From: Eubacteriales bacterium
GTDB lineage: Bacteria; Bacillota; Clostridia; Christensenellales; CAG-138
NCBI GenBank assembly: GCA_028694155.1
Contig: JAQUTY010000003.1
Span: forward strand, 4,178-68,177
Direction: 5' to 3'
Length of the DNA stretch: 64,000 nucleotides
This document shows positions 2,088 to 35,270 of this stretch, one piece after another. The number at the start of each line of letters is the position of its first letter. Within the stretch, counting starts at the first letter, position 1. Both the position numbers and the translations under genes were made by a program. The notes beneath the pieces were generated by a model. That model saw nothing but the letters and a program-made list of their open reading frames with translations. It made no database searches and was not told where the DNA came from.

Positions 2088-2420
2088 CTCGTTTCCACCT
2101 GCATTGCGCTTGACAGCTTTCAGATGCATCAGCTGGCACCTTAACAATCATCCAACTGATGATACGGCTTGGTAATTTGCGGACTCCAGAAGCTTTTTCG
2201 TGGATGGATAAAAGCACAGAGAATACCTTGTATAGCTATCGGATAATTACGGCGGGAATCACAAGTAAAACAAGAACGATAGATATTATGCTCATTGTTG
2301 ACAATTCGAAGATGTATCATCTCTATGTGTATTGCTGATATAGTCTTAATCAAGAGTTAGACAACGGATAAAACATTCACAGCATTTTTGAAGATATTTA
2401 CTAAATTAGTAAAAAAACTA

Positions 2421-2449
2421 TTGACAGATTCAGGATTTTTGACTATATT
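2421..2449 (+). promoter_or_regulatory. sigma-A type promoter of tRNA-Leu
   Basis: TTGACA 2421-2426, 17-nt spacer, TATATT 2444-2449, 9 nt before the tRNA 5' end. Confidence 0.65.
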
Positions 2450-2458
2450 AGTGAAAGT

Positions 2459-2541
2459 GCGGTAGTGCTGGAACTGGCAGACAGGCACGTTTGAGGGGCG
2501 TGTGCGCAGGCGTATGGGTTCAAGTCCCATCTACCGCACCA
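2459..2541 (+). tRNA. tRNA-Leu (anticodon GAG)
   Basis: GCGGTAG acceptor pairs with CTACCGC followed by ACCA. Anticodon stem CACGT/GCGTG with loop TTGAGGG. Long variable arm. T-loop GGGTTCAAGTCCC. Confidence 0.9.
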
Positions 2542-2544
2542 AAG

Positions 2545-2587
2545 AAAGACGTTGATTTTGTTACGGAATTAACGTCTTTTGTTATTT
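2545..2587 (+). terminator. rho-independent terminator after tRNA-Leu
   Basis: AAAGACGTT 2545-2553 pairs with AACGTCTTT 2571-2579, followed by a T-rich tail TGTTATTT. Confidence 0.55.
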
Positions 2588-2601
2588 CAAAAAATTTCCG
2601 C

Positions 2602-2630
2602 TTGACATGCAGGCAAATGAGTGCTATTAT
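2602..2630 (+). promoter_or_regulatory. sigma-A type promoter of the metQNI transcription unit
   Basis: TTGACA 2602-2607, 17-nt spacer, TATTAT 2625-2630. Confidence 0.7.
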
Positions 2631-2667
2631 GCCTAAAAAGATAATATATTCTTGAGAAAGGGAAAAT

Positions 2668-2754
2668 ATGAGCGTTCTATTCGGAACAAACAACATGTAC
2701 ATGTCTATGATGATGCGGAGCAAAGATTGCCGGATCATGCGTTGGCGTGTGTAA
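2668..2754 (+). CDS. candidate Met-rich leader peptide (28 codons) in the metQNI leader
   Basis: ATG 2668 with AAGGG 5 nt upstream. Translation MSVLFGTNNMYMSMMMRSKDCRIMRWRV, stop TAA 2752-2754. 7 of 28 codons are ATG. It lies between the promoter and the leader terminator. Confidence 0.5.
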   Translation: MSVLFGTNNMYMSMMMRSKDCRIMRWRV

Positions 2755-2789
2755 CGATTAGATACGCAAACTGCAGACGAAGCAATCTT

Positions 2790-2815
2790 TGGAAGCCGCG
2801 GGCTTCTGTTTTTTT
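2790..2815 (+). terminator. intrinsic terminator inside the metQNI leader (attenuator)
   Basis: GAAGCC 2792-2797 pairs with GGCTTC 2801-2806 (GCG loop), followed by TGTTTTTTT. It sits 30 nt upstream of the metQ start. Confidence 0.65.
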
Positions 2816-2844
2816 ACTCAAAAATAAACTAAGGAGAAACAATC

Positions 2845-3687
2845 ATGAAAAAAATCATCACTTTGACACTACTGGTACTATTTGCACTGACTCTGGTTGT
2901 CGGCTGCACGGGCAGTAAGGGAATTACGATTGCCGTTCCAAACGATACGACAAATGAAGCGCGTGCGTTGCTTCTGCTTGAGGATCTTGGCTATATCAAG
3001 CTTAAGGATGGCGTAGGAATAACGGCTACCATTTTAGATATTGCGGAGAATCCCTACAACATAAGCATTAAAGAAGTCGAAGCAGCCCAGCTTCCGAACA
3101 TTCTACCCGATGTTGATTATGCGGTTATCAACTCTAACTATGCTATTTCCGCTGACTTAGATCCGCTTAATGATTCACTAGCAATAGAAGGTTCATCATC
3201 ACCATATGCAAACATTCTTGCCTGCAAATCCGGCAATGAGAACAGCGACAAGATTAAGGCTCTTAGTGCAGCTCTTAGGAGCCAACAGGTTGCCGACTAT
3301 ATCACCGCTCAATATGCAGGCGCAGTAGTTAGCGTAGTTGATGATCCTACCGATGGGTTTGATCCAACAGTTGACTATGCTGCTCTTAACGGTACTTCAA
3401 TATCTGTTGCGGCCTCGCCAACTCCTCATGCTGAGATATTGAAAATTGCCGCTGACATTCTTGCTCAAAAAGGAATTGAGCTGCGAATTGTTGAGTTTAC
3501 GGATTATGTTCAACCAAACTTGGTTGTAGAAAGTGGCGAGATTGATGCCAATTACTTCCAGCATGTTCCTTATCTTGATGATTTCAATGCTAACAACAGC
3601 ACCAATATCGTATCTGCTGCGCTTGTACATGTCGAACCCATAGGACTATACGGTGGCAAGCAAAGCAGCCTAAGCGCAATCGGATAA
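2845..3687 (+). CDS. metQ: methionine ABC transporter substrate-binding lipoprotein (MetQ/NlpA family)
   Basis: RBS AAGGAG. Lipobox LVVGC. NlpA-family sequence throughout. Followed by metN and metI. Confidence 0.9.
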   Translation: MKKIITLTLLVLFALTLVVGCTGSKGITIAVPNDTTNEARALLLLEDLGYIKLKDGVGITATILDIAENPYNISIKEVEAAQLPNILPDVDYAVINSNYAISADLDPLNDSLAIEGSSSPYANILACKSGNENSDKIKALSAALRSQQVADYITAQYAGAVVSVVDDPTDGFDPTVDYAALNGTSISVAASPTPHAEILKIAADILAQKGIELRIVEFTDYVQPNLVVESGEIDANYFQHVPYLDDFNANNSTNIVSAALVHVEPIGLYGGKQSSLSAIG

Positions 3688-32112: not shown

Positions 32113-33165
32113 TTGAACACTTATCAGACGCAGAAAAAGAAAACGAATACTGAGAAGCTCCGAGCAATTCTGTCTGAGCTGCCAACGTTTTGCGGATACT
32201 TTTTTCGCAGCGTAGAAACTAGAACCAGTATTTTAACAAGATGTGGGTATGCTTTGGACTTGAAGGGTTTTTTCACGTTTCTAGTATCGGATGTTGATTT
32301 GTTCGCTGGAAGGGATATCCTCTCCCTCACCCTTGCAGATATCGAAAAGGTTAAAGCCCTAGATATAGAACTATATCTGGATAAAATGACATTATATACA
32401 AATAATGATGTTGAGCGCGAGAACAGCGAGAGTGCAAAAGCACGCAAGCTCTCCGCAATTCGTTCTTTTTTCAAGTACTACTACAAGCAAGAAATGATAA
32501 GCCAGAATGTTGCGTCCCTTGTTGACATTCCCAAGATTCATGAGAAGGCTATTATCAGACTTGACGCAAACGAGGTTGCCGATCTATTGGATATAGCCGA
32601 GGACGGAGATGGATTATCAAAAACTCAGAAACGATTTCACAAAGCCACAAAGATTAGAGATGTTGCCATTCTTACTCTGTTTCTGGGCACGGGAATCCGA
32701 ATCAGCGAGCTTATCGGTTTAGATATTGAGGATATTGACTATGAAAATAGTATGTTCTTAATTACCAGAAAAGGCGGCAATCAGGAACGTTTGTCATTTG
32801 GCGATGAAGTTAAGCGTGCGCTTCTTGAGTACATGGAGCAGCGAACGAAAGTCGCTCCTTATCCCGGTCATGAACACGCACTGTTTCTGTCTTTACAACG
32901 CAAGCGTATATCCGCACGAGCAGTGGAGAATCTAGTCGTCAAATATGCATCAACTGCATCTCCACTCAAAAAGATAACGCCGCACAAGCTGCGCAGCACC
33001 TATGGTACTATGCTCTATCACGAGAGCAACGACATATATCTTGTTGCCGATGTTCTTGGGCATAAGGACATCAATACTACAAGAAAGCACTACGCTGCCC
33101 TATCGGAAGAGAAACGCCGAACCGCTGCAAAGATGATAAAGCTCAGAGAGGACGATCCTCACTGA
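32113..33165 (+). CDS. tyrosine site-specific recombinase, XerC/XerD-like
   Basis: Catalytic region RISELIGLDIEDID, HKLRSTYGT, LGHKDINTTRKHY. TTG start. No phage or IS genes nearby. Confidence 0.8.
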   Translation: MNTYQTQKKKTNTEKLRAILSELPTFCGYFFRSVETRTSILTRCGYALDLKGFFTFLVSDVDLFAGRDILSLTLADIEKVKALDIELYLDKMTLYTNNDVERENSESAKARKLSAIRSFFKYYYKQEMISQNVASLVDIPKIHEKAIIRLDANEVADLLDIAEDGDGLSKTQKRFHKATKIRDVAILTLFLGTGIRISELIGLDIEDIDYENSMFLITRKGGNQERLSFGDEVKRALLEYMEQRTKVAPYPGHEHALFLSLQRKRISARAVENLVVKYASTASPLKKITPHKLRSTYGTMLYHESNDIYLVADVLGHKDINTTRKHYAALSEEKRRTAAKMIKLREDDPH

Positions 33166-33340
33166 CATCTTCCTCATCAAAGTATACGCCATCAATCAAT
33201 ATTTCTGCGAACTCCTTATTATCTCCGTCTAGGCATTTGAAACAATTATCGCACATCTTAGTGGGATCAAGCTCACAACGGTCATCACACTGGTGGCAGT
33301 TGTTGCACTCCTTATCGGGCTGCAAAATGCACATTTTCAT
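33143..33340 (-). CDS. small Cys-rich acidic protein divergent from lexA (CxxCxxCxxxC plus CxxCxxC)
   Basis: ATG 33340 is preceded by GGAGG and 6 T. Translation MKMCILQPDKECNNCHQCDDRCELDPTKMCDNCFKCLDGDNKEFAEILIDGVYFDEEDVSEDRPL. A LexA box lies immediately upstream. Confidence 0.6.
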   Translation of the reverse strand: MKMCILQPDKECNNCHQCDDRCELDPTKMCDNCFKCLDGDNKEFAEILIDGVYFDEEDVSEDRPL

Positions 33341-33350
33341 AAAAAACCTC

Positions 33351-33364
33351 CGAACAAACGTTTG
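33351..33364. promoter_or_regulatory. LexA operator (SOS box) shared by lexA and the divergent small gene
   Basis: CGAACAAACGTTTG fits GAAC-N4-GTT(C/T). It overlaps the putative lexA -35 (TTGCAT 33362-33367, 17 nt, TGaTATGCT). Confidence 0.7.
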
Positions 33365-33421
33365 CATATTCCAAATAATTGTGATATGCTAGTTTTATCA
33401 CAATCGGGAGGAAAAATCAAC

Positions 33422-34039
33422 GTGAAAAAGCTGGACAATGCACCAATGGTCATTTATCGGTTTATCTGCGAGTATTTCAAGCAGAATAATTTTCCTCCGA
33501 CCATTCGTGAGATTTGTACGCACGTCGGGTTGAGCTCCCCCTCCACCGTACATCGACACATGAAAACGCTTCAACAGCAAGGGCTCATTGACAAGGATCC
33601 GCACAAGCAACGTGCATACGTTATCAGCAATTATCAGAATGCAAGCGAAGACGCAATCCCACTGGTTGGCAGCGTTGCAGCAGGCATTCCCATAAATGCG
33701 CTCGAAAATATTGAAGAACTTATAGCCGTTCCGAATATGCTTACCGGAGGGCTGCCCAGTGATGAGACGTTCATGTTAAAGGTCAAGGGAATGAGCATGA
33801 AGAACGCCGGCATCATGGACGGGGACATCATTGTTTTGGGCATCGGGCAAAGTGTATGCAACGGCGATATAGTAGTTGCAAGAATAGATAACGAAGACGT
33901 CACCGTAAAACGCTTTCAGCGCAAGAATGACGTCATAATATTGATCCCTGAGAACTCGGAATTTGCACCGTTAATTATTCCCCAAGAGCGTGTTGAGATT
34001 ATTGGCAAGGTGGTTGGACTTATGCGTCCATATCATTAG
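33422..34039 (+). CDS. lexA: LexA repressor
   Basis: GTG 33422 after GGGAGG. wHTH FPPTIREICTHVGLSSPSTVHRHMKTLQQQGLI. Cleavage site VAAG. Peptidase residues GMSM and KR. Confidence 0.92.
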   Translation: MKKLDNAPMVIYRFICEYFKQNNFPPTIREICTHVGLSSPSTVHRHMKTLQQQGLIDKDPHKQRAYVISNYQNASEDAIPLVGSVAAGIPINALENIEELIAVPNMLTGGLPSDETFMLKVKGMSMKNAGIMDGDIIVLGIGQSVCNGDIVVARIDNEDVTVKRFQRKNDVIILIPENSEFAPLIIPQERVEIIGKVVGLMRPYH

Positions 34040-35270
34040 CTGCCAGCAGCGACCTTGCCACTTCAACTGCAGCGCATCTGCCATGTTCATATGTCAAGCC
34101 GCCCTGAATATACACAATGTATGGTTCACGAATTGGGCCATCGGCACTCAACTCGGTCGTGGCACCCTGCACGAATGCACCTGCCGCCATGATTACTCTA
34201 TCTTCATATCCGGGCATATCCCACGCCTCAGGCGTAACAAAACTGTCAACAGGTGCGGCCTGCTGAATTGCCTTGCACATCCGCTTCATTCCTTCGGGTG
34301 AGTTTAATTTCACCGCCTGAATAATATCAGAACGATTATCAGATGATTTTGGCATAGATTCATAACCCATAATCTCGAACACTCTTGCAAGTAATGTAGC
34401 TGTCAAAAGGCACTGTCCCGTAGTATGAGGTGCCATGAACAGTCCTTGATAAAACGGGCGATAGGATGCTGCATAAGATCCCACTTCCCTGCCCATTCCG
34501 GGAACAGTCAGTCGGTCAGCCACTTTATTAATGTAGTTTGCTTTTCCAGCAATATATCCTCCGGTTGGAGCAATTCCTCCGCCCGGATTCTTTATCAGCG
34601 AGCCTGCAATTACATCTGCCCCTACGGCAGTAGGCTCAAGCTGTTCGGTAAATTCACCATAACAGTTGTCAACAAGAACGCATACATCGGGTCTTTTTGC
34701 TTTCACTATTTCAAGGCATTGACCTATTTGTGCGATTGAAAGAGCAAGTCTCCAGCTATATCCCCTAGACCGTTGCAAATAGACAACAGAAATATTCTTA
34801 TCGTCAAGTTTGTCGGTAATTGCATTGAAATCAAAGCCTCCATCTTCCATCAATGGAATTGAAACGAACTGCACTCCGTTGCTATTGAGTGTGTTTGTAG
34901 CTTCTCCGCAAAGACCAATAGCTGTCTGTAACGTGTCGTAGGGATCACCTGTAATTGATAACACGGTTGAATTAGGTACTGCAAGACCGCTTAGCGCAAG
35001 ATAAATAGCATGAGAACCATTAACTATCTGCGGACGAACCAAAGCATCTTGGCAGAACATTGCCTGCGCAAACACCTTATCAAGCGTGTCCCTTCCAACA
35101 TCGTCATAGCCATAACCGTTGGTCGGCGAAAAATGCCGAGCTGAAACCCGATTGTCATTAAATGCCTTAATAACACGCTGTTGGTTAACATACATCAGCT
35201 CATCTATCTGAGTTCGTTGTGTGGCGGTTTGTTCGTGTGCAAGTTGCACAAGTTCATTTGCAGTAAGCAT
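34020..35270 (-). CDS. ynbB: YnbB-type PLP enzyme (aluminium-resistance / methionine gamma-lyase-like family)
   Basis: N-terminus and length match the YnbB family. Its position between miaA and lexA is conserved in Firmicutes. Confidence 0.8.
   Translation of the reverse strand: MLTANELVQLAHEQTATQRTQIDELMYVNQQRVIKAFNDNRVSARHFSPTNGYGYDDVGRDTLDKVFAQAMFCQDALVRPQIVNGSHAIYLALSGLAVPNSTVLSITGDPYDTLQTAIGLCGEATNTLNSNGVQFVSIPLMEDGGFDFNAITDKLDDKNISVVYLQRSRGYSWRLALSIAQIGQCLEIVKAKRPDVCVLVDNCYGEFTEQLEPTAVGADVIAGSLIKNPGGGIAPTGGYIAGKANYINKVADRLTVPGMGREVGSYAASYRPFYQGLFMAPHTTGQCLLTATLLARVFEIMGYESMPKSSDNRSDIIQAVKLNSPEGMKRMCKAIQQAAPVDSFVTPEAWDMPGYEDRVIMAAGAFVQGATTELSADGPIREPYIVYIQGGLTYEHGRCAAVEVARSLLAANDMDA

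Follow-up and report, generated by a model that had tools for sequence, protein, structure and literature searches.

A conserved tandem Cys4 small protein encoded divergently from lexA in Clostridia, a candidate SOS accessory factor

The gene divergent from lexA is the site of the Gram-positive DNA-damage checkpoint, and to our knowledge many lineages of Clostridia have no described gene for this function. What, then, occupies this position in such a lineage, and does it belong to the SOS response? The question is raised by a 64,000-nucleotide (nt) stretch of an Eubacteriales bacterium of the order Christensenellales (assembly GCA_028694155.1, contig JAQUTY010000003.1; hereafter the window), in which lexA faces a 65-codon, cysteine-rich gene. 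An earlier note on this DNA proposed that a LexA operator overlapping the putative lexA promoter controls the small gene and that the small protein could be a new kind of SOS effector. Here, we find that the small gene is real and conserved, that the operator is conserved, and that the geometry connecting the two holds. With moderate confidence, we propose that the gene encodes a cytoplasmic, acidic metalloprotein that would be repressed by LexA together with lexA and would serve as an intracellular SOS accessory factor.

The small gene and its family

The small gene translates to MKMCILQPDKECNNCHQCDDRCELDPTKMCDNCFKCLDGDNKEFAEILIDGVYFDEEDVSEDRPL, with eight cysteines in 65 amino acids (aa), at positions 4, 12, 15, 18, 22, 30, 33 and 36. 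The product is acidic (isoelectric point 4.1) and lacks any hydrophobic stretch, with a maximum 19-residue hydropathy of 0.19. The open reading frame (ORF) stands where the earlier note had placed it, divergent from lexA, and its 3′ end overlaps the convergent xer-like gene by 23 bp, also as described. A longer, 74-codon reading starting at 33367 was rejected: this start has no ribosome-binding site (RBS), lies inside the LexA box, and is at odds with homologues, which begin MKxC. Most homologous loci likewise have an RBS-like purine run (GGAGG, GGTGA or a similar sequence) ahead of the ATG.

A word-index search returned only 2 homologues. An exhaustive HMMER search of 1.8 billion representatives recovered 264 clusters at an expectation value (E) <= 1e-3, and six-frame genome searches located the family in 40 of 61 relatives, in 97 of 401 evenly drawn genomes of the class (about a quarter), and in 60 of 401 genomes of the phylum. 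The word index under-reports this family, and exhaustive and genome searches are needed to see it. Each carrying genome has essentially one strong match, so the family is single copy, and at least 485 species of the GTDB species collection hold it. Named carriers include Clostridium cochlearium, C. novyi, C. sporogenes and the botulinum group, C. fermenticellae and C. taeniosporum, as well as Monoglobus pectinilyticus, Ruminiclostridium herbifermentans, Petroclostridium and many Christensenella-type and Clostridia metagenome-assembled genomes. Named members are annotated "hypothetical protein" or "Zn-finger domain-containing protein".

In the family alignment, of which the window protein is the first row, residues C22, K28, C30, C33 and C36 are invariant, and C4, C12, C15, C18, D31, N32 and I47 are at least 90% conserved; every invariant column is present in the window protein. 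Among Christensenellaceae orthologues the median ratio of nonsynonymous to synonymous substitution rates (dN/dS) is 0.22; the Cys domain alone gives 0.11 and the rest of the protein 0.28. This purifying selection, together with the conservation of both the ORF and the box in the lexA loci of relatives, answers the doubt raised in the earlier note that the ORF might be neither conserved nor selected. A spurious ORF is ruled out by the same conservation and dN/dS values. The small ORF is a real gene, a member of an unnamed family that is single copy and spans Clostridia and related classes.

The earlier note had read a ferredoxin-like motif in the cysteines. The sequence instead resolves into an internal tandem duplication with an 18-residue period, where module 1 (C4-x7-C12-x2-C15-x2-C18) is followed by module 2 (C22-x7-C30-x2-C33-x2-C36). 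The family consensus is C-[VI]-L-D-x-x-K-[IV]-C-[DN]-[ND]-C-G-E-C for module 1 and C-[DE]-L-D-P-x-K-[IV]-C-D-N-C-[FMG]-[KR]-C for module 2, identical at 9 of 15 positions, and the joint consensus is C-x-L-D-P-x-K-[IV]-C-D-N-C-x-x-C. Two modules are present in 132 of 150 representatives, one in 17 and three in 1, with three-module forms also at P0025 and L014. The one-module proteins, among them that of the same-genus locus L020 (the others are L010, L018, L110, L179 and L180), have lost module 1 and kept C-x7-C-D-N-C-x-x-C, which shows module 2 to be the indispensable one. Since their number ranges from one to three, the modules are autonomous units, unlike the ligand sets of a 2x[4Fe-4S] ferredoxin, which interleave; the C18-C22 linker has 1 to 4 residues. 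A conserved strand, [YF]-A-x-I-x-I-x-x-[VI], and then acidic residues follow the modules. We define the family by one to three C-x7-C-x2-C-x2-C modules with L-D-P-x-K and C-D-N-C, followed by [YF]-x-x-I-x-I and acidic residues, and the window protein has all of these features.

The family is in no curated family collection and no description of it was found in the literature, although the lexA-divergent SOS unit itself is already known. Pfam and NCBIfam scans of the window protein and 74 relatives gave nothing above threshold, only sub-threshold noise (Fer4, DUF1289 and SHLD2_C). The best hit of a PDB profile search, the zinc knuckle of eS26, was not significant (E 0.08), and Foldseek with the AlphaFold2 (AF2) model returned 0 matches in PDB and 0 in BFVD. 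Literature searches found no paper describing the family, and it is absent from the text of a gut SOS meta-regulon study that works at the level of COGs (PMC3998124).

The operator between lexA and the small gene

Between the two genes lies CGAACAAACGTTTG, which the earlier note had matched to the LexA operator GAAC-N4-GTT(C/T). A one-mismatch search of the 64-kb window found 4 such sites against 5.2 expected, which is not above chance. With a matrix built from homologous loci, the same box is the top site of the 1.8-Mb genome, at 25.7 bits compared with 22.8 for the next. We also sampled 100 loci of the order, 79 of which have lexA divergently adjacent, and a box lies between the genes in 77 of these 79. 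Its consensus on the small-gene strand is ATTG-CAAAC-AWWT-GTTCG, where the flanking TTGCAA is the lexA -35 element. The box is thus real by phylogenetic footprinting, being conserved in homologous loci and top-ranked genome-wide, and not by local statistics.

The position of the box ties it to both genes. Its last 3 nt overlap the TTGCAT that serves as putative lexA -35, an overlap already pointed out in the earlier note, and relatives show an equal lexA promoter geometry, TTGCAA-17-TGnTATAAT. On the other side the box lies directly upstream of the small-gene RBS, again as first described, and ends 10 nt before the ATG. SOS regulon members are recognized in silico by an operator at the promoter or between the promoter and the start, and the small gene shows this arrangement. 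With the box so close to the ATG, every small-gene transcript that carries the RBS begins at or crosses the operator. Two candidate promoters can be drawn for the small gene (Table 1), and the inverted repeat upstream of the box, which is only partly conserved at L020, can be read as a pair of extended -10 elements of the TGnTA kind facing each other, with TGaTATGCT belonging to lexA and TGaTAAAAC to the small gene.

The same arrangement recurs in 35 of the lexA-adjacent loci, including the window and L020, which we call type A. In these loci the box ends 8 to 32 nt before the small-gene ATG, a gap that leaves no room for a promoter between the two. In 12 type A loci of Christensenellaceae, a near-consensus TTGACT-17-TATACT ends exactly 11 nt upstream of the box, which puts the box at about +4 to +17, the geometry that candidate promoter 1 of the window also has. 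Across Christensenellaceae the box is fixed at -32/-33 from the small-gene ATG while its distance to lexA varies, and locus L030 has two boxes, one per divergent promoter.

Since the operator overlaps the lexA -35 and small-gene transcripts start at or cross it, bound LexA would be expected to repress both genes. We hypothesize that LexA dimers on the box would occlude the lexA -35, giving lexA autoregulation, and would block initiation or early elongation at the small gene. After DNA damage, RecA-stimulated autocleavage of LexA would then de-repress both. The window LexA looks competent for cleavage, as its translation contains the Ala-Gly cleavage site (VAAG), the serine in GMSM and the lysine in VKRF. 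We consider repression of the small gene by LexA likely in this genome, and we infer LexA binding and damage induction from the operator and its geometry.

How far the LexA regulon reaches beyond this locus is less clear. The genome contains recA (contig 6, 63974-65038), uvrB (contig 3, ~111768-113855) and uvrA (contig 7, ~197205-200063), and a search of the ~220 nt ahead of each of recA, uvrA, uvrB, ruvB and recN found no LexA box. The regulon may have shrunk to lexA, the small gene and a handful of unknown genes, or the search matrix may be too narrow. The second-best genome site is a perfect palindrome, CGAACGTTTGTTCG (contig 6, 228006-228019), in a layout of TATAAT, 6 nt, box and RBS, where the box lies 22 nt before a 128-aa gene without a Pfam match (box and gene together span contig 6, 227598-228019). 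This site repeats the order of -10 then box seen at the main box, and the 128-aa gene is probably a second LexA target.

The neighbouring genes are packed closely around the locus. The 3′ end of lexA overlaps the convergent ynbB-like gene by 20 bp (34020-34039), just as the small gene and the xer-like gene overlap (33143-33165). There is no space for terminators. Of the genes downstream of the family, the convergent xer-like gene is the most constant. A search of the window genome for yneA found none.

Table 1. Features of the lexA locus, in window coordinates; promoter assignments are putative.
Feature	Position	Strand	Description
Xer-like tyrosine recombinase gene	32113..33165	+	PF00589; best NCBIfam matches XerS, XerC and XerD, all below cut-off; convergent with the small gene
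Small gene	33143..33340	-	65 aa; two tandem Cys4 modules (C4-C18, C22-C36), conserved strand F-A-E-I-L-I-D-G-V, acidic tail
Small-gene RBS, GGAGG	33347..33351	-	6 nt ahead of the ATG; one base shared with the LexA box
LexA (Cheo-type) operator, CGAACAAACGTTTG	33351..33364	both	GAAC-N4-GTT[CT] palindrome in the promoter region, common to divergent lexA and small gene
Putative lexA promoter	33362..33390	+	-35 TTGCAT 33362-33367, 17-nt spacer, extended -10 TGaTATGCT (-10 at 33385-33390)
Candidate small-gene promoter 1	33375..33403	-	-35 TTGTGA 33403-33398, 17-nt spacer, -10 AATTAT 33380-33375; box at ~+4 to +17; predicted from sequence
Candidate small-gene promoter 2		-	TTGATT 33420-33415, 17-nt spacer, TGaTAAAAC (-10 at 33397-33392); box at ~+21 to +34
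Inverted repeat, TTGTGATA-N9-TATCACAA	33379..33403	both	
lexA	33422..34039	+	205 aa; GTG start behind GGGAGG; TIGR00498 5.4e-58; PF01726 and PF00717
ynbB-like gene for a pyridoxal phosphate enzyme (Met_gamma_lyase family)	34020..35270	-	PF06838 1e-162; last gene of a mutL-miaA-ynbB run

Locus contexts across the class and the alternatives to SOS control

The lexA-divergent arrangement has well-known counterparts. In Bacillus subtilis lexA faces yneA-yneB-ynzC, and sosA (Staphylococcus), chiZ (Mycobacterium) and divS (Corynebacterium) are likewise divergent from lexA across a GAAC-N4-GTTC-type operator. In the window clade the small gene takes the position that yneA has in other Clostridia, with its SOS promoter, box and RBS. 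The proteins themselves differ: YneA, SosA, ChiZ and DivS have a membrane anchor (and, in YneA and ChiZ, LysM) and are not Cys-rich, whereas the small protein is soluble and acidic, is built of Cys4 modules, and has no detectable homology to them. YneA-type proteins are recognized by an N-terminal transmembrane (TM) segment and a C-terminal LysM domain; the window protein shows neither, given its low hydropathy and its lack of any Pfam or NCBIfam match. The distinction that the earlier note drew between this protein and YneA, SosA and ChiZ holds.

To place the locus in a broader context, we tallied 80 loci in about 20 families of the class, and in 44 of the 80 the small gene has a lexA and/or yneA context. 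It is directly divergent from lexA in 19 loci (14 of 14 in Clostridiaceae, and in families f8 and f96), and in 18 more a yneA-like gene is divergent from lexA and the small gene follows it (f35, f46, f58 and f53), sometimes with a membrane-protein gene between them. In 6 loci (f36 and f71) a yneA-like gene precedes the small gene behind a textbook SOS promoter with lexA not nearby. In f36 and f71 the LexA boxes fall at the promoter of the yneA-like gene that immediately precedes the small gene, as at L148 with TTGACA-[AGAACAAATGTTCT]-TATAAT-[CGAACAAATGTTTG]-GGAGG. The small gene directly follows ynbB, at 11 to 59 nt and without a box, in 17 loci (f44, including Monoglobus, and f62), and 19 loci in several families have other contexts. 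A single locus, L122 of f59, shows a third wiring of the SOS locus, where the small gene follows lexA on the same strand after a 19-nt gap and yneA is divergent. In L116 (f53), a 217-aa polytopic membrane protein is encoded between yneA and the small gene (2387-3040), and its stop overlaps the small-gene ATG by 4 nt, suggesting that translation of the small protein is coupled to that of an envelope protein in an SOS operon.

The yneA-like neighbours encode TM and LysM proteins. All three that were tested have the YneA equivalog NF010723 as best match, and two of them exceed its cut-off of 60 (67.9 and 66.2 bits). Such a gene adjoins the family in at least seven sampled families (f35, f36, f46, f53, f58, f59 and f71) and in other classes of the phylum. 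YneA is a neighbour of the family in many Clostridia, and the small protein is neither its homologue nor its general substitute; a lineage-specific replacement of YneA is not what this distribution shows. The simplest history that we can draw from these gene orders starts from an ancestral arrangement of ynbB, lexA divergent from yneA, the small gene, and a convergent xer. Christensenellales and Clostridiaceae would then have lost yneA, and the small gene of the window clade would have inherited the SOS promoter and box of yneA.

Several observations count against SOS control of the small gene. The box is first of all the operator of lexA itself and is missing in 19 of the 21 order-level loci without adjacent lexA, and the two exceptions (L048 and L087) are truncated at contig ends. 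In the 42 lexA-adjacent loci of type B the box lies at least 38 nt upstream of the small-gene ATG, and in 28 of these the small gene has its own promoter between box and ATG, an arrangement where the box would serve lexA only. The operator-to-gene arrangement that marks an SOS target in silico is lacking in these 42 loci and in the ynbB-linked lineages. In most yneA-bearing lineages the short spacer behind yneA also contains a TGnTATAAT promoter for the small gene. Elsewhere in the phylum, in other classes, the small gene is insulated from yneA by a terminator hairpin followed by a promoter of its own, for example at L181 and L182. LexA control, as read from these promoters, is not a trait of the family. 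Within the window, the candidate small-gene promoters are weak by consensus, and a consensus promoter scanner called none in 33000-33600, for lexA or for the small gene. In the one metatranscriptome that contains the organism, no contig spans 33210-33695, which covers the 5′ half of the small gene and the intergenic region; for a Clostridium relative, 4 RNA runs cover lexA, and the small gene is seen only in low-depth contigs from one faecal metatranscriptome. The box-less recA, uvrA and uvrB leave the extent of the SOS regulon uncertain, and the window copy is truncated relative to many relatives, since it lacks their C-terminal tails.

Among the alternatives to our proposal, these observations give most weight to an account based on inherited synteny only. 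The box would be there to let lexA autoregulate, the small protein would be a constitutively required housekeeping metalloprotein such as a metal buffer or chaperone, and any effect of LexA on it in the window clade would be incidental to the intergenic compaction that followed yneA loss. The box-less loci without lexA, the ynbB-linked loci and the insulated, separately promoted copies all agree with this account. It does not readily explain why the window clade leaves no promoter space between box and ATG, or why the box of Christensenellaceae keeps its distance to the small gene rather than to lexA. Nor does it account for the retention of one box per promoter at L030, or for the persistence of the gene in the lexA/yneA locus across orders and classes. 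We regard synteny without regulation as rather unlikely, although it deserves serious consideration.

A second alternative casts the protein as the SOS checkpoint effector of YneA-less clades, a cytoplasmic division inhibitor that would titrate a divisome component (FtsZ or its tethers) and so functionally replace YneA. The small gene does sit in the exact promoter slot of yneA in a genome where yneA was not found, and long C-terminal extensions were gained in the yneA-less Clostridiaceae and Christensenellaceae. The extension in Christensenellaceae reads D-S-D-E-S-W-K ... R-T-L-x-x-x-Y-G-x-R-x-R-R, and that in Clostridiaceae, where copies reach 120-160 aa (L101-L110 and L131-L180), reads Y-I-D-D-I-D-G-L ... 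E-E-F-P-G-L-I-K-I-K. Most Clostridiaceae copies end in E-[FY]-P-G-[LFV] followed by hydrophobic and basic residues, resembling the FtsZ C-terminus DLE[IV]P[AT]FLRR of the same genomes (ftsZ genes compared at L186-L189 and L196), and the Clostridiaceae tail may be a decoy for FtsZ tethers. However, this likeness is a short motif that could be due to chance, and the tail is missing from the window protein. The family also co-exists with true YneA in many lineages, lacks a membrane anchor, and has no homology to SulA, YneA, SosA or ChiZ. Taken on its own, a division inhibitor that replaces YneA seems to us quite improbable.

Metal centres and a possible mode of action

Returning to the proposal of an SOS-controlled metalloprotein, the cysteine modules are the best guide to what the product might do. 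Each module probably holds one metal centre, either Zn or [4Fe-4S]. A CxxCGxC triad with a remote cysteine is the classic [4Fe-4S] ligand set, and the same set binds Zn in the CXXC fingers of eukaryotes, where two CxxCxxC triads can bind two Zn, each with a distal fourth Cys, in proteins that are basic DNA binders. In the AF2 model, residues 1-40 have block-mean predicted local distance difference test (pLDDT) scores of 86-94 and form loops; isolated bridges immediately precede Cys 1 and Cys 2 of each module, and a single short helix comes after C33-C36. From the Cys pattern, this loop-and-knuckle model and the His/Cys-rich tails of relatives, we judge it very probable that the window protein binds metal.

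About 7 of 150 members, as well as L019 and L103, have such tails (CDC/HHH) at the N or C end, with HHHHDCDCGCDHHHH and CDCEDCHDECDCHEHDCDC as examples. Long forms rich in His, Cys and Asp, with CDC, HHH and CGH repeats, are seen in P0055, P0060, P0104, P0107, P0112, L019, L103 and L173. Tails of this kind are typical of metal-storage proteins or metallochaperones and would point to general metal handling, a feature that suits the synteny account. The family shares with bacterial metallothioneins and CXXC fingers a high Cys fraction and, in some members, the His/Cys-rich tails; metallothioneins lack its strongly conserved non-Cys residues (L, D, P, K, D and N), and no homology to either was detected.

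Ferredoxin [4Fe-4S] motifs (Fer4) and 16-residue maquettes offer another comparison, with a similar CxxCGxC triad and remote Cys and eight Cys in about 35 residues. They underlie a third alternative, that the protein is a mini-ferredoxin carrying Fe-S clusters for the neighbouring ynbB, miaA and miaB sulfur and tRNA-modification genes and is unrelated to SOS. We think this very improbable: sub-threshold Fer4 matches in about 10 of 74 members (best E 0.025) and the placement directly after ynbB in f44 and f62 speak for it, but no member reaches the Fer4 threshold, the window protein has no match at all, the family lacks the CP signature of CxxCxxCxxxCP, its modules are local and autonomous with variable fourth-Cys spacing, Foldseek finds no (beta-alpha-beta)2 ferredoxin fold, and ynbB adjacency occurs in only 2 of about 20 sampled families.

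What would an SOS-induced protein of this kind do? Its small size and acidity argue against an enzyme or a DNA binder, and we infer that it is more likely a protein-binding module, a soluble acidic product with two metal centres that would bind a partner protein and thereby act as an SOS accessory factor. DinI, SbmC/GyrI and YacG are small, acidic cytoplasmic proteins; DinI and SbmC are LexA-regulated, and YacG is a Cys4 zinc finger with an acidic Trp tail. By analogy, they illustrate how the small protein could act via partner binding, although the family has no Pfam or NCBIfam match to them at E <= 1 and the tandem C-x7-C-x2-C-x2-C module is not theirs. The Cys4 centres could also confer sensitivity to redox or metal status.

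We speculate further that the family could represent a previously unrecognised class of intracellular effector at the SOS locus of Clostridia, in which a redox- or metal-sensitive tandem Cys4 core (Zn or Fe-S) is fused to lineage-specific C-terminal docking peptides, such as the putative FtsZ C-terminal peptide mimic of Clostridiaceae. In YneA-less clades, including that of the window, the checkpoint slot under LexA control would have passed to this protein, whose target, reached from the cytoplasm, would be cell division or a DNA transaction. We offer this broader idea tentatively and, as a whole, consider it doubtful.

The locus suggests that loss of yneA can pass an SOS promoter to a neighbouring gene. 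The family occurs in cultivable species and is carried as hypothetical in annotation everywhere. If the small protein is a true SOS effector, Bacillota would have in it their first cytoplasmic, metal-dependent one, and the DNA-damage response would be tied to metal or redox state. Should it instead be a housekeeping metalloprotein held in place only by synteny, the small-protein family would still be unnamed and widespread, and would merit a Pfam entry.

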